Positions 5,010 through 26,317 of a stretch of DNA of 64,000 bases are shown in pieces. The notes beneath the pieces were generated by a model that was not told where the DNA came from, made no database searches, and saw only the letters and a program-made list of their open reading frames with translations. The first letter of the stretch is position 1; each line of letters opens with the position of its first letter. Both the position numbers and the translations under genes were made by a program. Source of the stretch: Escherichia coli (lineage in GTDB: Bacteria; Pseudomonadota; Gammaproteobacteria; Enterobacterales; Enterobacteriaceae). The stretch is taken from assembly GCF_003018255.1 (NCBI RefSeq), contig NZ_CP027440.1, one strand, 5' to 3'.

Positions 5010-7643
5010 ATGAAAGCGGTATCTCGCGTTCACATCACCCCGCATATGCACTGGGATCGGGAGTGGTATTTCACCACCGAAGAGTCACGCATTCTGCTGG
5101 TCAATAATATGGAAGAGATCCTGTGCCGACTGGAACAGGACAACGAATACAAATATTACGTACTCGACGGGCAAACGGCGATCCTCGAAGATTATTTCGC
5201 GGTGAAACCGGAAAACAAAGACCGTGTGAAGAAACAGGTAGAAGCAGGCAAGTTGATTATCGGCCCCTGGTATACCCAGACCGATACCACGATTGTTTCT
5301 GCGGAATCCATCGTCCGTAATCTGATGTACGGAATGCGTGACTGCCTCACGTTTGGCGAGCCGATGAAAATAGGTTATTTACCAGATTCCTTTGGCATGT
5401 CCGGGCAACTGCCGCATATTTACAATGGATTTGGCATTACCCGCACCATGTTCTGGCGCGGATGTTCTGAGCGCCACGGTACTGATAAAACCGAGTTTTT
5501 GTGGCAAAGCAGTGACGGTAGCGAAGTGACGGCGCAGGTGCTGCCGCTGGGCTACGCCATCGGTAAGTACTTACCTGCCGACGAAGACGGATTACGCAAA
5601 CGCCTCGACAGTTATTTTGATGTGCTGGAAAAAGCGTCAGTAACCAAAGAGATTTTGCTGCCGAATGGTCATGACCAGATGCCATTGCAGCAAAATATCT
5701 TCGAAGTGATGGATAAGCTACGTGAGATCTACCCTCAACGTAAGTTTGTGATGAGCCGCTTTGAAGAGGTATTTGAGAAGATCGAAGCGCAGCGAGATAA
5801 TCTGGCAACCCTGAAAGGGGAATTTATTGATGGCAAATATATGCGCGTGCATCGCACCATCGGTTCTACGCGTATGGATATCAAAATTGCCCACGCGCGT
5901 ATTGAAAATAAGATTGTTAATCTGCTGGAACCGCTGGCAACGCTGGCCTGGACGTTGGGTTTTGAATACCACCACGGCTTGCTGGAGAAATTGTGGAAAG
6001 AAATTTTAAAAAACCACGCCCATGACAGCATCGGCTGCTGCTGTAGTGACAAAGTTCATCGCGAGATTGTCGCCCGTTTCGAACTGGCAGAAGACATGGC
6101 GGATAATCTGCTGCGTTTCTATATGCGTAAAATTGCCGATAACATGCCACAGAGTGATGCCGACAAACTTGTGCTGTTTAACCTGATGCCCTGGCCGCGG
6201 GAAGAAGTGATCAACACCACTGTGCGGCTGCGCGCCAGCCAGTTTAATTTGCGGGACGATCGCGGTCAGCCTGTACCGTATTTTATTCGCCATGCCCGTG
6301 AGATCGATCCTGGCCTAATCGATCGGCAAATCGTTCATTACGGTAATTATGATCCCTTTATGGAGTTTGATATTCAGATCAACCAGATTGTCCCTTCTAT
6401 GGGCTATCGCACGCTTTATATCGAAGCGAATCAGCCTGGCAACGTGATTGCGGCAAAAAGTGACGCTGAAGGGATACTGGAAAATGCTTTCTGGCAAATT
6501 GCGCTCAATGAGGATGGAACGCTACAACTGGTAGATAAAGACAGCGGTGTGCGCTATGACCGGGTGTTGCAAATTGAAGAAAGCTCTGATGATGGTGATG
6601 AATATGACTATTCACCCGCAAAAGAAGAGTGGGTAATTACTTCGGCGAACGCGAAACCGCAATGCGAGATTACTCATGAGGCCTGGCAGAGTAGGGCTGT
6701 TATCCGCTATGACATGGCGGTGCCGCGTAATCTGCATGAACGCAGCGCAAGACAATCCACTGGCAGAGTAGGGGTGGAGTTGGCTGTCACTCTGAGTGAT
6801 AACAGCAGGCGCATTGATGTGGATATCAACCTTGATAACCAGGCTGACGATCATCGCCTTCGCGTCCTGGTCCCTACACCTTTTAACACCGACAGTGTTC
6901 TGGCCGATACCCAGTTTGGTTCGCTAACGCGCCCCGTGAACGACAGTGCAATGAACAACTGGCAGCAAGAAGGCTGGAAAGAAGCGCCGGTTCCGGTATG
7001 GAATATGCTCAACTATGCTGCCTTACAGGAAGGGCGTAACGGTCTGGCTGTCTTTAGCGAAGGGCTACGTGAATATGAAGTCATCGGTGAAGAGAAGAAA
7101 ACCTTTGCCATTACGTTGCTGCGTGGCGTGGGCTTACTGGGGAAAGAAGATCTGCTTTTAAGGCCTGGACGTCCTTCAGGAATAAAAATGCCGGTGCCCG
7201 ATTCACAATTACGTGGCTCCTTTAGCTGCCGTCTGAGCTTATTTAGTTATACAGGTACGCCTTCGACCGCCGGTGTAGCCCAGCAGGCGCGCGCATGGCT
7301 GACGCCAGTACAGTGTTACAACAAAATCCCGTGGGATGCGATGAAGTTAAATAAAGCCGGATTCAATGTGCCGGAAAGCTATAGCTTGCTGAAAATGCCC
7401 CCTGTGGGATGCCTGATTAGCGCTCTTAAAAAAGCGGAAGACCGGCAAGAAGTGGTATTGCGACTGTTTAATCCGGCAGAATCGACAACCTGTGAGGCAA
7501 CTGTCGCGTTCAGTCGTGAGGTGATTTCATGTACGCAAACGATGATGGATGAAAGCATCAGCACAGCGGAAAGAGATAATTTAAAGGAACTGGGGGCATT
7601 TTTACCGGGGCAGTCACGGACATTTAGCTACCGCCTTGGCTGA
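5010..7643 (+). CDS. mngB: alpha-mannosidase (GH38)
   Basis: 877-aa [26 protein letters not shown]38 N-terminal signature; follows mngA by 18 nt. Confidence 0.94.
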
Positions 7644-7787
7644 TTATTGCGCTAAAAGTGTATCTGAGGGGGGCAATAATTTCAGGCCATCTTCGGATGG
7701 CCTGAGATTGTTGATAAACAAGTTTGTTAGCTTACGCAGATACCAGATTTGACCTGCGTGAGAACCGCAGGCCATTTATCATTTCAG

Positions 7788-9185
7788 TTACCCCTTAAAC
7801 GTTAACCACGGTCGAAATCTGACCGCTGGCTGAATTAATCCGGCTTCTTGTTGGGCTTCGATAACCGGACCAATATCTTTATAAGCCGCTGGCGCTTCTT
7901 CAAAACGTCGTTCTTCGCGCAATGTGACGCATTGCCACGGCAGCGTTGACTCTTCAGTCGCGCGTGAGCGCATGGCCTGCCGACGCTGGCTGCGTCCTGC
8001 TCCGTGACTGCATGACCACAGCCACTCCGGGTTGCCGCAACCTACCGCAAGCCACGAATAATCGCCCATTGAACCGGGGATTAACGCCAGATTGCCCACT
8101 CGTGCCGGTGTTGCGCCTTTGCGATGAATATTCATTTCATGCTCGCGAAGGATGATGTTATGTGGCACATCCACCACCAGATGCGAATTGTCCTGATGAA
8201 AGAGATTGGCAAGACATACGCGCACCATTTCGGCAATTGTGACGCGATTTAACCATGCGTAACGCGCCGCCATTCCTATCGCTTGTAGATATTCCTCCGC
8301 CAGTCCGCCTGCCAGACCATATAACCCGCTTTGTGGATGTTTATGTCCGGTGGGCCATTCAGCACGGGCGCGATCCATCCAGCGTCTTCCGACGTAAAAG
8401 CCAACATCTCGCGATCCACTGTGGATCATCACCACAATATCGCCTGTTTTCAGCCCTTGTTGCCAGGCTACATGGCGATCAACCACGCTATCAACGACCT
8501 GAAGTTCAATAAAATGATTACCTGAACCCGGCGTACCCAGACAAGGATCGCGGAGTAATGCGCGGTCCGTTGCCTGCAGGGCGGGTGGGGCATAACGCGA
8601 ATGACTGTTATGCTCGTTAAGCCCAATGCAGCGGTCAATCTCTTGTACCATTCGGGGGATATTCGTGCGTATCCAGAGACCTTCTGATGGCAAGGTCGAC
8701 ACGCAATCTGCCGGTCCGCCATCAAAAAGCGCGGTGAACGCCTGTGCGGATAACGGAACATCGCGCTCATTTTGCAGTAGCACTTGCGTTAACCGCTGAG
8801 CGATGACGTCTTTATGCGCTTCGGCTTGCTCAAGTGTTAATCCGGTCGTCAGCAGCCGCATGCCACAAGAAATATCGGTGCCGATGGCGGCGGGAATGAC
8901 TAAATCCGGCGTTGAGGCCACCACCGCGCCAACGGGGACGCCATTGCCGGGATGAAAATCTGGCGTCGCGCACGTCTGGCGCACATAACCTGGGTGGTCT
9001 GGTAGCTTCACTTCTGCAAAATCAAGCAGTTGTGTTACTGCTTTTTCTTCCAGCGGCAGTTCGTCCGGCAGCAGTACGCGGGCACTGGCACCTGATGGAC
9101 GAGATAATGAAACAATATTGTTGGCGCGGGAAAGTTGGATCCCTTTGCGCAGAAAGGCTTTATCAAGCCTTGAAAGATGATGCAT
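7788..9185 (-). CDS. RtcB-family RNA 3'-phosphate ligase paralogue (orphan, no rtcA/rtcR/prfH neighbour)
   Basis: 465-aa ORF; blocks IPAAIGTDISCGM, GSGNHFIELQ, MIHSGSRDVG, ALIPGSMGDYS, CSHGAGRS and C-terminal AYKDIGPV...KG align by eye to E. coli RtcB; about 29-residue N-terminal extension; ATG at 9185. Confidence 0.85.
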   Translation of the reverse strand: MHHLSRLDKAFLRKGIQLSRANNIVSLSRPSGASARVLLPDELPLEEKAVTQLLDFAEVKLPDHPGYVRQTCATPDFHPGNGVPVGAVVASTPDLVIPAAIGTDISCGMRLLTTGLTLEQAEAHKDVIAQRLTQVLLQNERDVPLSAQAFTALFDGGPADCVSTLPSEGLWIRTNIPRMVQEIDRCIGLNEHNSHSRYAPPALQATDRALLRDPCLGTPGSGNHFIELQVVDSVVDRHVAWQQGLKTGDIVVMIHSGSRDVGFYVGRRWMDRARAEWPTGHKHPQSGLYGLAGGLAEEYLQAIGMAARYAWLNRVTIAEMVRVCLANLFHQDNSHLVVDVPHNIILREHEMNIHRKGATPARVGNLALIPGSMGDYSWLAVGCGNPEWLWSCSHGAGRSQRRQAMRSRATEESTLPWQCVTLREERRFEEAPAAYKDIGPVIEAQQEAGLIQPAVRFRPWLTFKG

Positions 9186-9436
9186 AACGCTGTCCTGAAA
9201 TATAGACGTTAAACAACCCCCTGTATGGCGAGGGTAATTTTGTCTTTCCGGTCAGCAGCCAGCAAAAGGGAAAGAAAACGCGCGTAGTGTATGTGGCGAT
9301 AGCAAGTGTTACAAGTGGTAAATCTGGCTTATTGTTAAAGAGGAATTATCTTTTGTGAAGTCTTTTAAGGCCATGACTCATTCAATTTAACCGGACATAG
9401 ATAATATATAACATAGGGTATCTAAATTTATCATTG

Positions 9437-9575
9437 TATACTTGTCATAATTCAAGTTGCATGTGCTGCATCGATGTTCGCTCACCCAGGTCACTTACTT
9501 ATGTAAGCTTCTGGAAATTCATTATTTGTTCCCTTCCTGCAACTTGACTTATTTAGAGTATATTCATGTATACAC
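9437..9575. repeat. ERIC (IRU) repetitive element
   Basis: Contains cgctcaccc.ggtcacttacttatgtaagct (reverse complement of the ERIC2/ERIC1R primer regions) with inverted termini tgtatac...gtataca; near-identical to the copy at 46501-46630. Confidence 0.8.
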
Positions 9576-10060
9576 ATCGAGATTTCAGCCAGCAGACGCG
9601 CATCTGGCGTGCCGTGGCGGATCTGTAGCGGTTTTTGCAGAGTTTCGGTGAGGCGACGGCAAGCTGCAACGCCGTGGTTAACGACCGGTAAACCGTTCAG
9701 TTTAGAGGTTCCGGCTTCGATGGATTTTTTAATCCCTACAGCCGCTTCTTCGTACCGATTCAGACGGGTATATGCATCGATGGTGCTCGGCAGCAGATCG
9801 CACTCTTCTTGTAGTGTTTTCAGTAGTTCGATGTGTTCGTCCATCAGCGCCACACCTGCGCGCGGTTGGCTAAGGGTTTTACCTTCCTTGTCTGCTTTCA
9901 ACAGCGCAAGAGAGAAGCGTTTATGCTCAGGAATGGTTTGTTGGTATTTAACGCCATCTTCAAAGTTTTCAACATCCTTGCCGGTTTCCCAGGTTTTCAG
10001 TACCTGTTGCCGCTCGGTCATGAATTCGTCATGGGTTAATTTCTTATTTCGAAGTTCCAT
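9491..10060 (-). pseudogene. glmE: glutamate mutase E subunit (methylaspartate mutase epsilon), truncated
   Basis: First about 160 aa ([50 protein letters not shown]) match GlmE/MutE; homology ends near 9580 where the frame runs into the ERIC element and stops; full-length GlmE is about 480 aa. Confidence 0.75.
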
Positions 10061-10078
10061 TGATTGCAGCCTTAATTG

Positions 10079-11467
10079 TTATAGGGTTAAGCATTGAATA
10101 CTGGTGCGCGCGGCGGCCAGCGGATCGACTCTGGCGACGTTTGCCAGCAGTGGTAATAGCCCCCGGGAATCGCGGTAATATTCAAATTCGGTCGGTAAGA
10201 GAATGCGTTTACCGTCGTCGTTTAACTCGCGGTATTTCAACCAGTGATGCATATCGAACTGACTGGCACGCGAGAGCCATCCGCCGGATCCGACGACTTT
10301 ACGCACGGTTGTCAGGTCACGTCCCATCTGTAAATCGACATTGCCGACGCAGGTGCAGACCTCTTTTTTGGTGCCCGCATGTCTTTCGGTGGCATAACCC
10401 ACACACAGTCCGGCCAGGACGGTATCGAAATATTTTTCTTCTGCATTCGCGGGTAAGTAGTCGGGATGAGCGACTAGATGACGGAGGTAATGATAAAAAG
10501 CGTCCAGCTGTGCGGGTTGCTGAGCAAAATTCACATTGACTAACTCTTTCGCACTTTCACCAACCACCATTGCCGAGACGCGCATTCCCAGATCTCCTTC
10601 CACCGTCCGTTTTACGAAGGGTTCCGGTACGCCATGTAAAACAGTGTCGGGCGAGAGCGTGTTGGCACTGGCGGAATAGACATCGGTGGTTGCGCCACCC
10701 ATGTCGATCAGCATGAACTCTTTCCAGCTGTGATCGACATTACTGATTGCCTTAACCAGTTCAAAGACTGTCCACGGTGTCGGCATTGGTTCTTCGCCTG
10801 TTTTATCAACAACGACATCCAGCCCTTTCCCTTTAACGATGCGTTTAAGGAATATGTCGCAGATAGCCTGGCGTGCAGCTAAAGGGTTCGGATGGTCAAG
10901 ATCGGGCAGAACGTTGTCGACGATGGTCAGGTCTTTATGCCCGAGGATCTCCTGCACCTCGTCCTGAATATCCCGGTTTCCGGCATAAATAATGGCGCAG
11001 TCGAGTTTGGATTCTGCCAACACACGGGCGTTATTCAGTCCGTAGCTTTCTTCTCCGCCATCGGTGCCGCCGGTGAACAAGAGAATATCGGGCTGCGTTT
11101 CTTCCAGTGCCTGGATATCACGGCGGTTCAGCTTGTAGGCGTAAGATTGCGCAATTTTAGCACCCGCAGAGTGAGCGGTTACTTTCGCGGTTTCCAGGGT
11201 GATAGAAGGCACCAATCCCATTGCGGCAACCGCCAGCCCACCTTTGGCAGAGGAGGAATACTTCAATGCAACCTCACCACTGTTTAACAGGGGGAGGGCA
11301 TCATCTACGTTTAACACCTGGTCCAGGCTGGAGAAAAACCCCTTCGCCAGATGATGGGTGGTGGTTGGGGTCAGTACGTGGTTAACCAACGTTAACGCGT
11401 CCCCCTCCCGGGCGAAGAGGGCTGCTTTGGTCCACGTCGATCCAATATCGACAGAGACGATTTGCAT
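10079..11467 (-). CDS. glmL: glutamate mutase accessory protein GlmL/MutL (actin/Hsp70-like fold)
   Basis: 462-aa [21 protein letters not shown], between glmS and glmE as in clostridial mut operons; start overlaps glmS stop. Confidence 0.75.
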   Translation of the reverse strand: MQIVSVDIGSTWTKAALFAREGDALTLVNHVLTPTTTHHLAKGFFSSLDQVLNVDDALPLLNSGEVALKYSSSAKGGLAVAAMGLVPSITLETAKVTAHSAGAKIAQSYAYKLNRRDIQALEETQPDILLFTGGTDGGEESYGLNNARVLAESKLDCAIIYAGNRDIQDEVQEILGHKDLTIVDNVLPDLDHPNPLAARQAICDIFLKRIVKGKGLDVVVDKTGEEPMPTPWTVFELVKAISNVDHSWKEFMLIDMGGATTDVYSASANTLSPDTVLHGVPEPFVKRTVEGDLGMRVSAMVVGESAKELVNVNFAQQPAQLDAFYHYLRHLVAHPDYLPANAEEKYFDTVLAGLCVGYATERHAGTKKEVCTCVGNVDLQMGRDLTTVRKVVGSGGWLSRASQFDMHHWLKYRELNDDGKRILLPTEFEYYRDSRGLLPLLANVARVDPLAAARTSIQCLTL

Positions 11468-11916
11468 CAGATTGCCTCTTCAAGAATACGAGTATCAACG
11501 TCATGACGTTGGTTGATATCGTGGGCCATCAGCTGACAAACATCTTCTAAGTCATGACTTGGGGCAAAGACGCGATCAAATCCCATCTCTTTGAATTTGG
11601 TTTCCACGTCAGCGAAGTCATGTTTTCCGACCACCAGGTTACCGCCCACATAGAGCAGGATGTCCCCCAGTCCACGCTCGATGCAGCGTTCGCGCATGCC
11701 CAGACAGTCGATATCGCCATGCCCATAGATAGAGGAGACGACAATCGCGTCAGCACCAGTTTCAATGGCAGCATCAATATATTCGTCCTGGCTGACCATT
11801 ACGCCCAGATTAATAACTCTGAAGTCATGGTTGCTAAAAACGCGGTCCAGAACTTTATTGCCTACTGCATGGCAGTCCGCGCCAATAACGCCAATCACAA
11901 GTGTTGCTTTCTTCAT
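11467..11916 (-). CDS. glmS: glutamate mutase S subunit (B12-binding sigma subunit)
   Basis: 149 aa from [24 protein letters not shown] with DxHxxG cobalamin-binding motif; GGA-type SD upstream of ATG at 11916 (the track ORF extends further 5'). Confidence 0.82.
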
Positions 11917-12463
11917 GGGTAATCCTTTGTAAGACAGAGAGTAAAATAAGTTACACACGTCGTATTTATGGCCGCTCATAACGGCACAGGTTTAATATCA
12001 CAGGAGTGTCTTTATCTGACCGTAATGTTGCAATTGATCTATTTTCAAAATGTCTTTCGGGAAATGATTGTTTAAAGTGTGTTTTCAAATTCTCATGTTA
12101 ATTCAGTGTGTTATGTCAACTAATGTCATGAATGTTAAATTTTTAAAATTAACTTGATTTGATGTATTGAGATAATTGTGATCAACTTCTAATTTGCATT
12201 TTAGTGATATGGGGTTAGCCATGAGTAAATGCATTTCATAAAAGTTAAGTCGAATTTCACTGCAATTCATCTCTGCTTAATGTAAAAATAATGTTGAAAA
12301 TAACAAATAATTAATGATTCATGCGAATTATGACCTTTGTTAGCTCTTTTGATTTTTCGTAAAAAAGAAAAGTACATGAAGGTGCTACCAGTACGAGAAA
12401 CGTTAATCAAAAGTTTTATTACGTCTGGCAATAACGCAGGCCATTTTTCGCGACAGGAGGGAT

Positions 12464-12886
12464 TTAATCAGTATAATCCTCATACAATAGGTCAGGATTT
12501 ACAGAACCGTTAACGGGGTTTTGGTGTTGAAATTTAGAAATGGTGGAGTCAATCAATGAAGACAGTATCGAAAAAATGACTGTGTCAGAATTAATTTCAA
12601 TTAATCCTTCTCGTTGTTGACCAAAAAAGATATTTATCTTGATTTCATTTGTACTACGGAAATCAATATGTAGTAATTTTTGATCGCTGAGATTTTCTGT
12701 TTCATAAATGTTTTTGGCGATAGTCGGATGTATTGATGCCAGACATCTGCTCAGATAAGCCAGATCCTTTAGGGAACACCCCGCTGAGTAGAGGATGTCA
12801 GAGAATTTTTGTGTGTCAACTGTTGGCTCTGAAGCGTATGTTGCATTGACTGGAAGGGTGTTGAAGGAGATTTGAGATGGGATCAT
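12464..12886 (-). CDS. hypothetical protein, 140 aa, no recognisable family
   Basis: Uninterrupted ORF in a strongly AT-rich block, co-directional with and 80 bp downstream of the 314-aa ORF; weak SD; no motif I can identify. Confidence 0.5.
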   Translation of the reverse strand: MIPSQISFNTLPVNATYASEPTVDTQKFSDILYSAGCSLKDLAYLSRCLASIHPTIAKNIYETENLSDQKLLHIDFRSTNEIKINIFFGQQREGLIEINSDTVIFSILSSLIDSTISKFQHQNPVNGSVNPDLLYEDYTD

Positions 12887-12966
12887 TATTTAAATCTTTC
12901 CGTGAGTAATAAAAATTAATCCCCGGGCATTGTTTAGTAATATTTGCCACAGGGGATATATAAAAA

Positions 12967-13911
12967 TTAAAGTATTTGATTGGCATCGGTTAACTGATCA
13001 ATAACCAGTGCCAGATTGGTAAACATTTTGAAAAAGCGATACTGGCTCGGAATATCTCTTTCAAAGACGAAACATTCAATGTCATTGTTTGAAAAATAAA
13101 GGACTAGTGATGCTGATTCGTCAGGAAAAATATGGAAATATATCTGGTTACCAGAAGGAGGATAGTCCAGAAGAAGGGTATCTTTGCCCGTCACATACCT
13201 GTTGTGGTCGTGGATGCTGCGCTCACACTTCATCAGAGGTGTCATGATACTCATGTATTCATCTGATGTTAATATATTAAAATCACCATCCATTTTAAAG
13301 AAACGATAAAGTAACAGTACATCCTCTTGCGTAACCGGTTCGTTTGTTTTTAGAGGGAAATAAGTGGGAACCAGAAGATGAGGTTCTAATCTATTTTGTT
13401 GAGCGCTATAACTAAATTTGAACATAAATTCCGGATCGCTCATCAATTGAGCGACATAATTATGCCTGGCTTCAAAAATTTTAACTTTTATCAGGTTAAA
13501 TAAGTCTGTTTCGTCATCCTGTATTAAAAGACATTGGCCATAGCAGCCAGGCTTTTTTTCATTATAAGCAGAAACGGTTATTCTGTCAGGAGTGTCAACG
13601 TTATATCCAAAAGCCAGATAGTGACCTTCCTCATCGAGATTTGTTTCCAGGTTATTTAAATTCATCACATGAAGTGTTTGCAATGCTGATTCAATGAGCT
13701 GTTGACTCTCTGAGGTAAATGTTTCGCGCTGCGTTGTATAAAGTGTATCGATTCCAACGACTATCCGATGTGGGTCAAGGATGGCGGCAATCATCTTTAT
13801 TACCTGCACAGTCATGGGTGATGTCATTGATTCTTTATCTGTTTTTAGAGGATCATTAGATGGCCAACCTGAGAAGCGATTGACAGCAGAACTGATAATA
13901 TCAGGACTCAT
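12967..13911 (-). CDS. hypothetical protein, 314 aa, no recognisable family
   Basis: Long ORF in AT-rich DNA with GAGG SD 9 nt upstream of ATG at 13911; no long hydrophobic segments, no P-loop or other motif recognised. Confidence 0.6.
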   Translation of the reverse strand: MSPDIISSAVNRFSGWPSNDPLKTDKESMTSPMTVQVIKMIAAILDPHRIVVGIDTLYTTQRETFTSESQQLIESALQTLHVMNLNNLETNLDEEGHYLAFGYNVDTPDRITVSAYNEKKPGCYGQCLLIQDDETDLFNLIKVKIFEARHNYVAQLMSDPEFMFKFSYSAQQNRLEPHLLVPTYFPLKTNEPVTQEDVLLLYRFFKMDGDFNILTSDEYMSIMTPLMKCERSIHDHNRYVTGKDTLLLDYPPSGNQIYFHIFPDESASLVLYFSNNDIECFVFERDIPSQYRFFKMFTNLALVIDQLTDANQIL

Positions 13912-14339
13912 AGCAGCAACCTCATTGTAATCAAGCGAGGCGCTGAGCGTACTCGGCTATAGAAAAACTAACTTGCAAAAATCGCTCATTTTTCATTTAT
14001 CAGGCGAAAGTGGTCTCTGTTCACTCAGAAACAATCACTCCCGCTAAGTCATACCTGTTTCATCGATACATTTAAGTGATTATTACTAATGAAACAATAA
14101 CATAATGGGCTTACGGCCGGTGCTCATAAACGCAACAATCAATTAACTTTGATAAAAATATGTTATGTAAAATAGCAACAAATTGGCTAATCTAATCAAT
14201 TGGTATTATAAAAAGTGGATAAGGCGGTTCTGTTAAATAAAACACTGGTTTTTTATCTATACCTTTTCATTGTAATAATTGTGTTGCATAAATATTTCAC
14301 AATAAATTAACAATAAAATCACCAATGATCTATGGTTTA

Positions 14340-14713
14340 TACATAATTAACATATTTGGTTGATTTTGATATAAATCAATTTTTAATTCTTGAAAAAAAT
14401 CTGCAAAACACGATAAATTGTCGTAGATCAAATTGGTGAGATCGTGACAATTTCGCTATAAATTGATCACTGTCGAAAAATGCAAATTTGCTCAATAAAA
14501 ACCTGTTTATTGTAAGGATTTTGCGGCGTAATATAATTACGGGATCAATTTGGTTTATTCATTAACACATTTGTAACTTTTTTATCATTGTCTTTTCCTC
14601 TTTTGATGAAATGGCAACGATAGAGGCGAGCAAATAATTTTGTATTGGGGCATGCGTGTGACCCTTTCTAACGGGGTTCACTCTCGGAGTCTTCATGCGA
14701 TGAGCAAGGAGTC
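14340..14713 (+). promoter_or_regulatory. cydAB promoter/regulatory region with FNR-type sites
   Basis: TTGAT-ATAA-ATCAA at 14356-14369 and TTGTC-GTAG-ATCAA at 14418-14431 match the FNR consensus TTGAT-N4-ATCAA; AT-rich upstream of cydA. Confidence 0.6.
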
Positions 14714-14716
14714 ATG

Positions 14717-16285
14717 ATGTTAGATATAGTCGAACTGTCGCGCTTACAGTTTGCCTTGACCGCGATGTACCACTTCCTTTTTGTGCCACTGACGCTCGGT
14801 ATGGCGTTCCTGCTGGCCATTATGGAAACGGTCTACGTCCTTTCCGGCAAACAGATTTATAAAGATATGACCAAGTTCTGGGGCAAGTTGTTTGGTATCA
14901 ACTTCGCTCTGGGTGTGGCTACCGGTCTGACCATGGAGTTCCAGTTCGGGACTAACTGGTCTTACTATTCCCACTATGTAGGGGATATCTTCGGTGCGCC
15001 GCTGGCAATCGAAGGTCTGATGGCCTTCTTCCTCGAATCCACCTTTGTAGGTCTGTTCTTCTTCGGTTGGGATCGTCTGGGTAAAGTTCAGCATATGTGT
15101 GTCACCTGGCTGGTGGCGCTCGGTTCAAACCTGTCCGCACTGTGGATTCTGGTTGCGAACGGCTGGATGCAAAACCCAATCGCGTCCGATTTCAACTTTG
15201 AAACTATGCGTATGGAGATGGTGAGCTTCTCCGAGCTGGTGCTTAACCCGGTTGCTCAGGTGAAATTCGTTCACACTGTAGCGTCTGGTTATGTGACTGG
15301 CGCGATGTTCATCCTCGGTATCAGCGCATGGTATATGCTGAAAGGTCGTGACTTCGCCTTCGCTAAACGCTCTTTTGCTATCGCTGCCAGCTTCGGTATG
15401 GCTGCCGTTCTGTCTGTTATTGTTCTGGGTGATGAATCTGGTTACGAAATGGGCGACGTGCAGAAAACCAAACTGGCTGCTATTGAAGCCGAGTGGGAAA
15501 CGCAACCTGCGCCTGCTGCCTTTACTCTGTTCGGCATTCCTGATCAGGAAGAGGAGACGAACAAATTTGCGATCCAGATCCCTTACGCGCTGGGCATCAT
15601 TGCAACGCGTTCCGTGGATACTCCAGTTATCGGCCTGAAAGAACTGATGGTGCAGCATGAAGAACGCATTCGTAACGGGATGAAGGCGTACTCTCTGCTC
15701 GAGCAACTGCGTTCTGGTTCTACCGACCAGGCGGTTCGTGACCAGTTCAATAGCATGAAGAAAGACCTCGGTTACGGTCTGCTGCTGAAACGCTATACGC
15801 CAAACGTGGCTGATGCGACTGAAGCGCAGATTCAACAGGCAACCAAAGACTCCATTCCGCGTGTAGCGCCGCTGTACTTCGCGTTCCGTATCATGGTGGC
15901 GTGTGGCTTCCTGCTGCTGGCAATCATCGCGCTCTCTTTCTGGAGTGTCATCCGCAACCGCATTGGCGAGAAAAAATGGCTGCTGCGCGCCGCGCTGTAC
16001 GGTATTCCGCTGCCGTGGATTGCTGTAGAAGCGGGCTGGTTCGTGGCTGAATATGGTCGCCAACCGTGGGCTATCGGTGAAGTGCTGCCGACAGCTGTGG
16101 CGAACTCGTCACTGACCGCAGGCGATCTCATCTTCTCAATGGTGCTGATTTGCGGCCTGTATACCCTGTTCCTGGTGGCAGAATTGTTCTTAATGTTCAA
16201 ATTTGCACGCCTCGGCCCAAGCAGCCTGAAAACCGGTCGCTATCACTTTGAGCAGTCTTCCACGACTACTCAGCCGGCACGCTAA
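14717..16285 (+). CDS. cydA: cytochrome bd-I ubiquinol oxidase subunit I
   Basis: [20 protein letters not shown]..., 522 aa; the track ORF starts one codon earlier at 14714. Confidence 0.96.
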
Positions 16286-16300
16286 GACAGGAGTCGTCAA

Positions 16301-17440
16301 ATGATCGATTATGAAGTATTGCGTTTTATCTGGTGGCTGCTGGTTGGCGTTCTGCTGATTGGTTTTGCAGTCACTGACGGTTTCGACATGGGGGTGGGCA
16401 TGCTCACTCGTTTCCTCGGTCGTAACGACACCGAGCGTCGAATTATGATTAACTCCATTGCACCACACTGGGACGGTAACCAGGTATGGCTTATCACCGC
16501 GGGCGGCGCACTCTTTGCTGCCTGGCCGATGGTCTATGCCGCTGCGTTCTCCGGCTTCTATGTGGCGATGATCCTCGTGCTGGCGTCTTTGTTCTTCCGT
16601 CCGGTCGGTTTTGACTACCGCTCCAAGATTGAAGAAACCCGCTGGCGTAACATGTGGGACTGGGGCATCTTCATTGGTAGCTTCGTTCCGCCGTTGGTGA
16701 TTGGTGTAGCGTTCGGTAACCTGTTGCAGGGCGTACCGTTCAACGTTGATGAATATCTGCGTCTGTACTACACCGGTAACTTCTTCCACCTGCTTAATCC
16801 GTTCGGCCTGCTGGCAGGCGTGGTGAGCGTAGGGATGATCATTACTCAGGGCGCAACCTATCTGCAAATGCGTACCGTGGGCGAACTGCACCTGCGTACC
16901 CGTGCAACGGCTCAGGTGGCGGCACTGGTGACACTGGTCTGTTTCGCACTGGCTGGCGTATGGGTGATGTACGGTATCGATGGTTATGTCGTGAAATCGA
17001 CAATGGACCATTACGCAGCCTCTAACCCACTGAATAAAGAAGTGGTTCGTGAAGCTGGCGCATGGCTGGTTAACTTCAACAACACGCCAATTCTGTGGGC
17101 TATTCCGGCACTGGGTGTGGTTCTGCCGCTGCTGACCATCCTGACTGCACGTATGGATAAAGCGGCGTGGGCGTTTGTGTTCTCCTCCCTGACGCTGGCC
17201 TGCATCATCCTGACAGCCGGTATCGCAATGTTCCCGTTTGTGATGCCGTCCAGCACCATGATGAACGCAAGTCTGACAATGTGGGATGCAACTTCCAGCC
17301 AGCTGACGCTTAACGTCATGACCTGGGTTGCGGTGGTTCTGGTACCGATCATTCTGCTCTACACCGCCTGGTGTTACTGGAAAATGTTCGGTCGTATCAC
17401 CAAAGAAGATATTGAACGTAACACCCACTCTCTGTACTAA
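16301..17440 (+). CDS. cydB: cytochrome bd-I ubiquinol oxidase subunit II
   Basis: 379-aa polytopic membrane protein MIDYEVLRFIWWLLVGV immediately after cydA. Confidence 0.96.
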   Translation: MIDYEVLRFIWWLLVGVLLIGFAVTDGFDMGVGMLTRFLGRNDTERRIMINSIAPHWDGNQVWLITAGGALFAAWPMVYAAAFSGFYVAMILVLASLFFRPVGFDYRSKIEETRWRNMWDWGIFIGSFVPPLVIGVAFGNLLQGVPFNVDEYLRLYYTGNFFHLLNPFGLLAGVVSVGMIITQGATYLQMRTVGELHLRTRATAQVAALVTLVCFALAGVWVMYGIDGYVVKSTMDHYAASNPLNKEVVREAGAWLVNFNNTPILWAIPALGVVLPLLTILTARMDKAAWAFVFSSLTLACIILTAGIAMFPFVMPSSTMMNASLTMWDATSSQLTLNVMTWVAVVLVPIILLYTAWCYWKMFGRITKEDIERNTHSLY

Positions 17441-17454
17441 GTAAGGAGCTAAAA

Positions 17455-17568
17455 ATGTGGTATTTCGCATGGATTCTGGGAACGCTTCTTGCCTGTTCGT
17501 TTGGGGTAATCACCGCGCTGGCGCTTGAGCACGTCGAATCAGGCAAAGCCGGTCAAGAAGACATCTGA
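17455..17568 (+). CDS. cydX: cytochrome bd-I small subunit CydX
   Basis: 37-codon ORF MWYFAWILGTLLACSFGVITALALEHVESGKAGQEDI read manually (below the track's length cutoff); single TM helix; stop overlaps ybgE start. Confidence 0.85.
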   Translation: MWYFAWILGTLLACSFGVITALALEHVESGKAGQEDI

Positions 17569-25273: not shown

Positions 25274-26317
25274 ATGAGCGTGATGTTTGATCCAGACACG
25301 GCGATTTATCCTTTTCCCCCGAAGCCGACGCCGTTAAGCATTGATGAAAAAGCGTATTACCGCGAGAAGATAAAACGTCTGCTAAAAGAACGTAATGCGG
25401 TGATGGTTGCCCACTACTATACCGATCCCGAAATTCAACAACTGGCAGAAGAAACCGGTGGCTGTATTTCTGATTCTCTGGAAATGGCGCGCTTCGGTGC
25501 AAAGCATCCCGCTTCTACGTTGTTAGTCGCTGGGGTGAGATTTATGGGAGAAACCGCCAAAATTCTCAGTCCGGAAAAAACAATTCTGATGCCGACACTT
25601 CAGGCTGAATGTTCACTGGATCTCGGCTGCTCTGTTGAAGAATTTAACGCATTTTGCGATGCCCATCCCGATCGTACTGTCGTCGTCTACGCCAACACTT
25701 CTGCTGCGGTAAAAGCGCGCGCAGATTGGGTGGTAACTTCAAGCATTGCCGTCGAACTTATTGATCATCTGGATAGTTTGGGTGAAAAAATCATCTGGGC
25801 ACCCGACAAACATCTGGGGCGTTACGTGCAAAAACAGACGGGCGCAGACATATTATGCTGGCAGGGTGCCTGCATTGTGCATGATGAGTTTAAGACTCAG
25901 GCGTTAACCCGCTTGCAAGAAGAATACCCGGATGCTGCCATACTGGTGCATCCAGAATCACCGCAAGCTATTGTAGAGATGGCGGATGCGGTCGGTTCCA
26001 CCAGTCAACTGATCGCTGCTGCGAAAACATTGCCACATCAGAGGCTTATTGTGGCAACCGATCGGGGTATTTTCTACAAAATGCAGCAGGCGGTGCCAGT
26101 TAAAGAGTTACTGGAAGCACCAACCGCAGGTGAGGGTGCAACCTGCCGCAGCTGCGCGCATTGTCCGTGGATGGCCATGAATGGCCTTCAGGCCATCGCA
26201 GAGGCATTAGAACAGGAAGGAAGCAATCACGAGGTTCATGTTGATGAAAGGCTGCGAGAGAGGGCGCTGGTGCCGCTCAATCGTATGCTGGATTTTGCGG
26301 CTACACTACGTGGATAA
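25274..26317 (+). CDS. nadA: quinolinate synthase A
   Basis: 347-aa [24 protein letters not shown]. Confidence 0.95.

Follow-up and report, generated by a model that had tools for sequence, protein, structure and literature searches.

The window (the whole 64,000-nucleotide stretch of E. coli DNA that was analysed) carries an RtcB-family ligase gene preceded by a predicted promoter and a candidate regulatory leader (Table 1). The remaining genes of the window are core genes: sucCD, mng, cyd, tol-pal, gal, mod, bio and moa. As an earlier prediction from the sequence had stated, mngB (5010..7643, plus strand) is convergent with the RtcB gene, and the two are separated by a spacer of 144 nt. The "shared hairpin terminator" proposed for this spacer stood only in part. 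Two separate hairpins are found there, both without a U-tract, and neither was flagged by the terminator scan.

Table 1. Features of the RtcB locus in window coordinates, with the basis of each assignment
Feature	Position	Strand	Basis or description
Two GC-rich hairpins between mngB and RtcB	7683..7773 (7683-7704; 7751-7773)	.	Folding; -17.2 kcal/mol (7683-7704) and, on the RtcB strand, -16.2 kcal/mol (7751-7773)
RtcB-family ligase CDS	7788..9185	minus	ATG start, 465 aa; ORF and translation; stand-alone long-form clade
Structured 5' leader RNA, candidate cis-regulator	9186..9282	minus	Covariance model R2: 9183-9282, 45.4 bits, E=2.5e-10
H1 3' strand CAGGACAGC	9189..9197	minus	Holds Shine-Dalgarno AGGA; complementary to GCUGCUG
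H2 3' strand GUCUAUAUUUC	9197..9207	minus	Folding and covariation
H3 variable hairpin ACCCUC...GGGGGU	9216..9235	minus	Folding
Purine run GGAAAGA	9243..9249	minus	P1 3' arm, or alternatively H2 5' strand
Invariant GCUGCUG	9253..9259	minus	H1 5' strand and part of the loop of alternative hairpin P1
P1 5' arm UCUUUCC	9269..9275	minus	Pairs with GGAAAGA
Predicted sigma-70 promoter	9286..9314	minus	-35 TTGTAA 9314..9309, 17-nt spacer, -10 TACACT 9291..9286; read from sequence
8.8-kb deletion junction	9572..9575	.	blastn alignment with the strain 7/2 locus, where the island is intact
glmE remnant (pseudogene)	9575..10060	minus	N-terminal 162 codons of methylaspartate mutase subunit E; RefSeq pseudogene

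The "accessory island" in which the gene had been placed is no defence island but a methylaspartate (glutamate-fermentation) island that an 8.8-kb deletion has shortened. At the junction, window position 9572 corresponds to position 16873 and window position 9575 to position 25717 of the strain 7/2 locus (L005). The deletion took the LysR gene, cobO, fumarate hydratase, a symporter, DUF4387, AtuA, mal and the 3' two-thirds of glmE, the remnant of which matches only profile positions 1-162 of 480 in TIGR01503. It ends 387 nt upstream of RtcB, sparing the promoter and leader. The PADLOC 2.0 defence models held no family for RtcB or its two neighbouring hypothetical proteins; with PADLOC blank, the idea of a defence system was rejected.

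In E. coli strains of the 7/2 type, where the island is intact, a LysR-type regulator adjoins RtcB and is divergently transcribed. In other E. coli, and in a relative with 86% identity, the RtcB module lies beside the hut operon and has no LysR neighbour, and in Pseudomonas, Burkholderia, Ralstonia, Variovorax and others RtcB is found in unrelated contexts. The comparison shows that the module occupies the "hypervariable" sucD-cydA spacer independently of the metabolic cargo. No partner gene is conserved over ten different neighbourhoods, which bears out the stand-alone status originally proposed, and neither rtcA, rtcR nor prfH occurs anywhere in the 64-kb window.

The open reading frame is real, and both of the motifs first noticed in it, DISCGM (C107) and CSHGAGR (H394), are present. 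RefSeq annotates the identical coding sequence as "RtcB family protein" (WP_096122540.1), and residues 63-465 match Pfam RtcB (PF01139) with E=6.9e-95 over model positions 7-426 of 426. Residues D76, H78, D104, C107, N223, H224, H255, H342, H394 and K464 are unchanged in 38/38 aligned sequences, E. coli RtcB1 included (equivalence to P. horikoshii D65, H67, D95, C98, N202, H203, H234, H329 and H404 was taken from the PDB alignment). No catalytic residue was thus lost on proper alignment, and the 465-aa protein is predicted to be catalytically complete, in line with the original prediction. An AlphaFold2 model (pLDDT 91.4, pTM 0.92) gave Foldseek matches to 4dwq_A and 8odo_A with TM 0.83 and E about 1e-31, which places the protein in the RtcB fold. 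The "extra" N-terminus of about 29 residues did not survive this comparison: it is the ordinary N-terminus of the long archaeal/eukaryal-type RtcB, and E. coli RtcB1 is the short one. The window protein aligns end-to-end with the T. thermophilus and P. horikoshii structures, and in the alignment with P. horikoshii RtcB (481 aa) its residue 40 falls opposite residue 30. With dN/dS values of 0.08-0.25 and a frame that is intact in all copies compared, the coding sequence is under purifying selection.

The protein shares 30% identity with K-12 RtcB, a divergence from the housekeeping enzyme that had been foreseen, and it is an extra paralogue, not a relocated housekeeping rtcB. Strain JNE112863, whose genome matches the window at 100% identity over 7.1 kb of query, still has rtcA-rtcB-rtcR in the usual place, the malT-glpR locus, and RtcB1 and window-type RtcB thus occur together in one genome. 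Of 5426 E. coli genomes, 4837 carry the rtcA-rtcB-rtcR genes. The window protein stays below the cut-offs of two NCBIfam models, scoring 208.7 bits against PRK09588 (the RtcB equivalog, cut-off 407) and 171.8 bits against TIGR03073 (PrfH-coupled RtcB, cut-off 271.8). Judged by sequence, it is a third E. coli paralogue. The stand-alone clade to which it belongs spans at least 303 species, chiefly Beta- and Gammaproteobacteria. A plasmid-borne origin was rejected, the clade being essentially absent from 72,556 plasmids. The lone E. coli match in the plasmid set is a 4.9-Mb record that is filed as a plasmid and is probably a chromosome; other matches in the set lie on large replicons of Eleftheria (a 737-kb replicon) and Nostoc (plasmids of about 300 kb).

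The promoter and structured leader of RtcB had not been remarked on in the original prediction. Both the hut context and the 86%-identity homologue retain the CTTGT sequence and the -10 box of the predicted promoter, and other genera have TAnAAT-like boxes at the equivalent position. Reading the upstream sequence by eye, we saw no sigma-54 promoter. Over 105 nt, the leader region is about 95% identical to that of a homologue whose coding sequence has a dS of about 1.06, a value at which synonymous sites are saturated. Of 80 species loci sampled (from at least 303 species), 78 carry an exact GCUGCUG, in most cases 72-78 nt ahead of the ATG. The reading CUGCAG is seen in many lineages. Some lineages are missing a clear Shine-Dalgarno sequence. 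All of the folded lineages have a hairpin at the H3 position, its sequence differing from one lineage to the next. An 18-codon upstream ORF starting from TTG, noticed by eye in the E. coli leader, was dropped because it is not conserved in other genera.

The nested fold composed of H1, H2 and H3 is the minimum-free-energy structure in nearly all lineages; in E. coli the minimum-energy fold is the P1 form, and the E. coli leader by itself folds only modestly better than its shuffles (z=-1.8). In most lineages folding favours the closed form by 2-10 kcal/mol over the fold that permits P1, these energies being indicative only (conformer comparison, 20/25 lineages; the constraint limited pairing direction and P1 was not forced). 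MAFFT followed by RNAalifold yielded no consensus structure for the diverse leaders because loop lengths differ. The leader models were built from a subgroup seed, which was converted into a covariance model and iterated to R2. The model R1 was set aside as too group-specific, with 33 matches and scores of 14-22 bits in other lineages.

Compensatory changes support two leader helices and, less firmly, the competing hairpin P1. Among 48 distinct leaders, in the model-fitted alignment A10, 95.1% of cells are paired as compared with 85.5% in shuffles, double-sided changes number 89 against 24, and covariation is 0.380 against 0.226 (0/500); slid controls reached at most 55% paired and a covariation of at most 0.091. 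Compensatory changes occur in 6/6 distal pairs of H2. H1 is 97% paired over the same 48 leaders but, its GCUGCUG strand being invariant, has no double-sided covariation. Sequence able to pair with GCUGCUG is not unusual around start codons in general, as 40% of control ORF starts reach -6 kcal/mol. H2/H3 complementarity is confined to cognate strands (permutation 0/5000), as is that of P1 (permutation 0/5000). P1 shows 108 double-sided changes against 49 (0/500) in an alignment, A12, that was register-fitted and hand-spliced and therefore leans towards pairing. Compensatory changes and a fixed position relative to the gene, the general marks of a structured cis-regulatory RNA, are thus both found in these model- or register-fitted alignments, and the leader is a well-supported candidate orphan cis-regulatory RNA.

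Several searches bore on whether the leader is already known and on its link to RtcB. Rfam 15 gave no match at E<=1 for window positions 7500-14800, and at the leader position of 20 loci no Rfam family reached its gathering score, with noise at E>1 in a single locus (L032). All R2 matches with E<=0.02 in the 724 kb scanned lie immediately 5' of RtcB, and 295 E. coli genomes each hold a single, unannotated copy of the leader. Among 80 listed matches to the pattern TTCC-N(2-14)-GCTGCTG-N(1-5)-GGAAR in metagenomes, none had RtcB in its locus, and the matches are attributable to chance and do not bear on whether the leader precedes other genes; model R1 found only noise in these 80 loci (best score, 17.7 bits). 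Neither a third E. coli RtcB nor a leader preceding RtcB is described in the papers that term-based literature searches turned up. The examined papers that cite Maughan and Shuman 2015 do not mention a leader RNA.

We consider it likely that the product is a functional RNA ligase of the long RtcB form and that the structured leader gates its translation. The clade lacks RtcA, RtcR and PrfH partners and acts as a self-contained unit made up of a promoter, a leader of about 100 nt and the RtcB gene. From the conserved residues and pairings we infer ligase activity, occlusion of the ribosome-binding site and switching between two forms. In the chemistry that we envisage, His394 would take GMP from GTP in a Mn2+-dependent step and pass it to an RNA 3'-phosphate, any 2',3'-cyclic phosphate having been opened beforehand; attack by the 5'-OH end would then seal the break. 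The originally suggested role in repairing RNA cut by ribotoxins or anticodon nucleases is speculative. The leader probably controls RtcB translation. In its closed form, GCUGCUG would pair with the Shine-Dalgarno-proximal sequence as H1 and GGAAAG with the downstream U-rich strand as H2, around H3, and the ribosome-binding site would therefore be buried. In the alternative form the upstream pyrimidine run would pair with the same purine run as P1, leaving GCUGCUG in the hairpin loop. RtcB synthesis would then be gated at translation initiation by a switch between these two forms, in place of transcriptional control by sigma-54 and RtcR.

The sparse distribution of the gene in E. coli invites a different reading, in which RtcB is a passenger undergoing decay at the margin of a metabolic island and has no present function in this species. 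It is retained in 289 of 5426 E. coli genomes (about 5%) and lost from most; about 840 genomes have only 57-96-nt remnants of its 3' end, occasional copies are split or half-deleted (H69, H71), and the 8.8-kb deletion comes close to the gene. The intact frame and low dN/dS of all compared copies, the full set of catalytic residues, the highly conserved promoter and leader that the deletion spared, and the maintenance of the clade in at least 303 species make this reading quite improbable. A functional tie of RtcB to the glutamate-fermentation (methylaspartate) genes or to their LysR regulator could be read from the divergent LysR gene that adjoins RtcB in 7/2-type strains, and is scarcely credible for a module that other E. 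coli and the 86%-identity relative carry beside a hut operon, that has unrelated contexts in other genera, and that is lost from many island-positive strains, such as O157:H7.

The same LysR gene, the sigma-70-like promoter that directly precedes the conserved block, and the conservation of GCUGCUG and GGAA as sequence, beyond what pairing demands, would fit a DNA element (a promoter with a transcription-factor operator) in place of an RNA structure. However, no LysR gene accompanies RtcB in the hut context or in other genera, and the window has lost it by deletion. The block lies between the -10 box and the ATG and is therefore transcribed. Double-sided compensatory changes in all six distal H2 pairs and throughout P1, the cognate-specific complementarity, and the persistence of the H3 hairpin despite its varying sequence also point to RNA, and we regard a DNA element as very improbable. 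If the leader acts as RNA, it might be a riboswitch for a metabolite or ion (e.g. GTP, Mn2+ or 2',3'-cyclic nucleotides), as opposed to a switch that responds to protein, RNA or temperature. Its two mutually exclusive pairings touching the ribosome-binding site resemble those of translational riboswitches, and its architecture is fixed over a broad distribution. Yet the conserved unpaired positions are very few, GCUGCUG and the purine run only, and offer little for a ligand pocket; the leader is linked to one gene family only in the sequence scanned, and Rfam has no similar aptamer. A metabolite or ion riboswitch is thus unlikely.

A more tentative extension of translational gating, and one that we think doubtful, is that the leader is an RNA-damage sensor acting jointly with its enzyme. 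Upstream of cyanobacterial RtcB relatives that are 41% identical, GCUGCUG lies in a hairpin loop with no obvious H1 partner; it may therefore be recognised itself, and not serve only as an anti-RBS strand. In one version, GCUGCUG in the P1 loop may be an operator bound by RtcB, such that free RtcB represses its own synthesis and broken RNAs titrate it off. In another, GCUGCUG may be bait for an endoribonuclease that leaves 2',3'-cyclic phosphate and 5'-OH ends; cleavage may free the ribosome-binding site, and RtcB may switch synthesis off by resealing its own leader. GCUGCUG holds two GCU sites, GCU being the cleavage site of MqsR, and CUGCAG is the consensus at which eukaryotic IRE1 cleaves ahead of ligation by RtcB. 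The cleave-and-ligate version, if true, would be a bacterial counterpart of IRE1/RtcB-type control.

To our knowledge, bacterial RtcB has so far been found in two arrangements, the rtcBA operon controlled by RtcR and sigma-54 and the PrfH-coupled RtcB2. The locus described here represents a third, in which one gene comes with a promoter of its own and a conserved structured leader. This arrangement is phylogenetically broad, spanning at least 303 of the species sampled. Should the leader gate translation, it would provide a direct experimental route to the signal that calls for RNA ligation in bacteria, and its hosts include genetically tractable organisms (E. coli ST405-type strains, Pectobacterium, Burkholderia and P. 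aeruginosa). For annotation, some E. coli carry at least two RtcB paralogues, perhaps three when RtcB2-PrfH is counted.

Leaders that sequester the ribosome-binding site, among them translational riboswitches, RNA thermometers and ribosomal-protein leaders, likewise pair the Shine-Dalgarno sequence in one fold that an upstream competitor can remodel; the RtcB leader differs in matching no Rfam 15 family and in being tied, so far, to one RtcB clade. Several RtcB paralogues in one bacterium have a precedent, by description, in RtcB1-3 of Myxococcus xanthus, whose activities differ (Maughan and Shuman 2015, as cited in PMC9304027). The RtcB2-PrfH ribosome-repair module known from E. coli ATCC 25922 (PMC9304027, PMC9223846) is also an accessory RtcB paralogue found in some E. 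coli strains only, whereas the window gene has no adjacent prfH and its product scores under the TIGR03073 cut-off. The published P. aeruginosa RtcB study concerns PA4583 of the RtcR operon, which falls outside the window RtcB clade.

The RtcB proteins of P. horikoshii, T. thermophilus (TTHA1785) and human (4dwq, 2epg, 8odo) have in common with window RtcB the full-length architecture, the N-terminal segment and all metal- and GMP-binding residues (TM-score 0.83), but structural alignments give just 22-27% identity, and the window locus lacks an archease or tRNA-splicing context. Housekeeping RtcB is controlled by the sigma-54 activator RtcR, which has a CARF domain and is divergent from rtcBA. 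Window RtcB has the Pfam family and catalytic residues of RtcB1, and presumably the same GTP/Mn2+-dependent sealing of 3'-phosphate and 5'-OH ends, but it exceeds RtcB1 by 57 aa and has an N-terminal subdomain and an internal insertion not found in the shorter protein. Where the rtcBA operon has rtcA, RtcR and a sigma-54 promoter, window RtcB has instead a sigma-70-like promoter and a structured leader.

The RtcB gene is preceded by a conserved leader, a 5' RNA of about 100 nt. Over the 105 nt before the ATG, the window is about 95% identical to a homologue whose synonymous sites are saturated, and in other genera the same upstream layout lies behind a -10 box resembling TAnAAT. The exact 7-mer GCTGCTG was found in 78 of 80 species loci, mostly 72-78 nt upstream of the start codon and at 106-137 nt where extra hairpins are inserted; it is missing only from a Firmicute MAG and from a truncated gene. 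Minimum-free-energy (MFE) folds, computed independently, gave the same nested structure almost everywhere. It consists of the three helices of an RBS-closed form (H1, H2 and H3); H2 joins strands such as GGAAGGUAC with GUACCUUUU, GGAAAACAGU with AUUGUUUUCU, and GAAAGAC with GUCUUUU. An upstream hairpin, P1, can form with the same purine run in place of H2. In most lineages the RBS-closed form has the lowest energy, by 2-10 kcal/mol, and in the E. coli leader the P1 form is lowest (-28.5 vs -25.7 kcal/mol). From these folds, lineages may differ in the set-point of the presumed leader switch. A "long form" of the leader, seen in Comamonadaceae and related Burkholderiales, has one or two extra hairpins between the 3' strands of H2 and H1, so that H1 closes a multibranch loop.

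Several statistics bear on the pairing. When strand duplex energies were permuted among 25 lineages with leader identity below 72%, cognate duplexes were more stable than permuted ones for H2/H3 (-12.9 vs -10.5 kcal/mol, 0/5000) and for P1 (-10.0 vs -8.0 kcal/mol, 0/5000); the result for H1, 102/5000, is expected because its 5' strand is invariant. An iterated covariance model (R2), seeded with one subgroup and iterated once, was run on 724 kb and gave 52 matches with E ≤ 0.02, every one of them immediately 5' of RtcB. In the R2 alignment (48 distinct rows), paired cells (95.1% vs 85.5% shuffled), double-sided changes (89 vs 24) and covariation (0.380 vs 0.226) were each reached in 0/500 shuffles, and a control in which partners were slid by 1-3 columns gave at most 55% paired cells and covariation of at most 0.091. 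Compensatory changes were seen at each of the six distal H2 pairs. The P1 alignment yielded 108 vs 49 double-sided changes and covariation of 0.439 vs 0.245 (0/500), values that carry lower weight because it was register-fitted and spliced, and is biased towards pairing. The mean energy of complementarity to GCUGCUG, taken within 14 nt of the start codon, is -9.2 kcal/mol for leaders and -5.4 kcal/mol for 347 control ORF starts. The E. coli leader by itself has z = -1.8 vs dinucleotide shuffles.

No Rfam 15 family matched window positions 7500-14800 at E ≤ 1 or reached its gathering score where the leader lies in 20 diverse loci, and a search with a Burkholderia leader at E ≤ 10 gave noise alone. 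Each of 295 E. coli genomes has a single copy of the leader, with no annotated feature beneath it, and full-text term searches of the literature found neither a third E. coli RtcB nor an RtcB leader. Nostocales relatives of 41% identity carry a conserved hairpin, AGAC-GCGGCUGCUGAACCnAA-GUCU, 73-137 nt upstream of the ATG, and three of the four sequences have the exact GCUGCUG in its loop; no anti-RBS partner was obvious in the four. Taken together, these observations hint that GCUGCUG shown in a loop is itself a recognised element, a post hoc comparison of four related sequences. Such an element would fit either autoregulation by RtcB or a nuclease bait site. A second copy, UGCUGAA, lies beside the Shine-Dalgarno sequence in Scytonema and one Nostocales sequence.

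Coordinates and composition of features at the RtcB locus and in related loci
Feature	Position	Strand	Remarks
RtcB-family CDS	window 7788..9185	minus	465 aa; DISCGM and CSHGAGR present
Leader, R2 match	window 9183-9282	minus	45.4 bits
AGGA	window 9196..9193		Shine-Dalgarno sequence; inside H1 3' strand
Predicted sigma-70-type promoter	window -35 TTGTAA 9314..9309; -10 TACACT 9291..9286	minus	conserved across contexts
H1	3' strand at about -12 to -3		GCUGCUG with CAGCAGC, GGUAGC or GCGGCAC; MFE folds
H2			purine run and variable extension with U-rich strand; MFE folds
H3			hairpin, sequence different in each lineage; MFE folds
P1			upstream pyrimidine run (CCUUCC, CUUUCC, CCUCC or CUUUCUUG) with purine run of H2; GCUGCUG in loop
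Long-form leaders	upstream of RtcB in L084, L085, L026, L029, L033, L034, L037, L041, L061, L070, L075		loci of relatives
Cyanobacterial hairpin	L221 1404-1432; L223, L224, L225 upstream of position 601		AGAC-GCGGCUGCUGAACCnAA-GUCU
GC-rich hairpin	window 7683-7704		mngB-RtcB spacer; no U-tract; unflagged by terminator scan
GC-rich hairpin	window 7751-7773		mngB-RtcB spacer; no U-tract; unflagged by terminator scan
8,843-bp deletion	window 9572 joined to 9575		= L005 (strain 7/2) 16873 and 25717; removed stretch L005 16874-25716
glmE stub	window region 9572-10060		162 codons
Two AT-rich hypothetical ORFs	window 12464-13911	minus	140 and 314 aa; cydA-proximal island end
RtcB remnant, O157:H7	NZ_CP015846.1 864743-864799		between sucD and island LysR gene
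Alternative cargo	L011 (strain 98203) 7996-17501; L015		sucD-cydA spacer
Ralstonia pickettii locus	L010 1-7859		RtcB module

The ORF proved to be an RtcB, as originally predicted (Pfam RtcB over residues 63-465, E = 6.9e-95; "RtcB family protein" WP_096122540.1 in RefSeq). The expectation that its catalytic residues are kept also held on proper alignment: D76, H78, D104, C107, N223, H224, H255, H342, H394, R398, R402, Y435 and K464, which correspond, in the alignment to the solved RtcBs, to metal- and GMP-binding residues of the P. horikoshii enzyme, are invariant in 38 sequences including the housekeeping E. coli enzyme, RtcB1. The N-terminal segment of about 29 residues had been taken for an addition. 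The protein can be aligned over its whole length to the solved RtcBs of T. thermophilus and P. horikoshii, and residue 40 matches P. horikoshii residue 30; the segment therefore belongs to the usual N-terminus of long-form RtcB, a part that RtcB1 (408 aa) lacks. An AlphaFold2 model (pLDDT 91.4, pTM 0.92; ten-residue block means of 91-94 over residues 11-40, and 66 for the first ten) superposes on P. horikoshii RtcB-GMP/Mn and human RTCB with a TM of 0.83. Comparison of four E. coli alleles gave Nei-Gojobori dN/dS values of 0.14-0.25, and comparison with an 86%-identity homologue (dS ~1.06) gave 0.08; by these ratios the gene is under purifying selection. Occasional alleles are decayed (NZ_CP041300.1 (H69) and NZ_OZ547117.1 (H71)): in one RtcB is annotated in two pieces, and the other covers only 51% of the query region.

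The gene could have been the housekeeping rtcB relocated. Its divergence from K-12 RtcB, noted in the original prediction, amounts to 30% identity with 18% gaps, and its scores fall under the curated cut-offs of both NCBIfam PRK09588 (208.7, cut-off 407) and the PrfH-coupled TIGR03073 (171.8, cut-off 271.8). The window corresponds to the sucCD-mngRAB-cydAB-tol-pal region of E. coli; JNE23-011 and JNE112863 are 100% identical to it over a 7.1-kb query, and JNE112863 retains rtcA, rtcB and rtcR intact between malT and glpR, an operon found in 4837 of 5426 complete E. coli genomes. On this evidence, the gene is a third paralogue and not a relocated housekeeping copy.

Its description as an orphan was upheld and is true of the whole clade of stand-alone long-form relatives. 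No rtcA, rtcR or prfH lies within the 64-kb window, the rest of which holds core genes only, and no neighbour recurs across the ten contexts inspected. Two peptide patterns identified relatives in at least 303 species, from which the 80 loci were retrieved; orthologues 58-67% identical and about 465 aa long are plentiful among Burkholderiales, Pseudomonas, Chromobacterium-like Betaproteobacteria, Gilliamella, Snodgrassella, Xenorhabdus, Pectobacterium, Thiothrix and Xanthomonadales, and the clade is practically missing from plasmids. Immediately upstream of the RtcB module in Ralstonia pickettii are a 1338-aa protein with a reverse-transcriptase domain, several ORFs without annotation and a DUF4288 gene; this neighbourhood, unlike the other contexts, could be of defence type.

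The accessory island, from which a still hypothetical role in repairing ribotoxin-cleaved RNA had been suggested, is of a different nature: it consists of a methylaspartate mutase/ammonia-lyase gene set and is taken here to be a glutamate-fermentation island, and a PADLOC defence search with RtcB and the two neighbouring hypothetical proteins gave no match. Strain 7/2 has the island intact, in the order mngB, RtcB (minus), LysR (plus), then on the minus strand cobO, fumarate hydratase, dicarboxylate symporter, DUF4387, AtuA, methylaspartate ammonia-lyase, glmE, glmL and glmS, followed by two hypothetical genes and cydA. The deletion in the window removed LysR through mal and left glmS, glmL and the glmE stub; the pathway is therefore dead in this strain. 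This form occurs in only 6 of the 5426 genomes. The two hypothetical ORFs are kept in all island variants and have no match in NCBIfam or PADLOC. mngB is convergent with RtcB, as predicted, but the hairpin terminator that they were thought to share resolves into two separate hairpins.

A complete RtcB gene is present in 289 of the 5426 genomes, and about 840 others, including O157:H7, keep just 57-96 nt of its 3' end; RtcB is therefore probably ancestral at the sucD-cydA site and was lost in many E. coli lineages. In other E. coli, the CDS with exactly 108 upstream nt directly follows sucD and adjoins a hut operon, and a relative of 86% identity has this context too. The sucD-cydA spacer is a hotspot whose cargo differs between genomes; hut-type loci carry a complete hut (histidine utilisation) operon, and mngRAB and the methylaspartate island are absent from the stretch examined.

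We infer that promoter, leader and enzyme form a self-contained module. The closed fold would bury the Shine-Dalgarno region within H1, and opening would proceed by remodelling through P1 pairing and an exposed GCUGCUG. The enzyme would then follow the established RtcB pathway and join 5'-OH ends to 3'-P or 2',3'-cP ends. By itself the gene would be one more ordinary addition to a known family; with its conserved leader it becomes a new regulatory variant, one that merits experimental follow-up.
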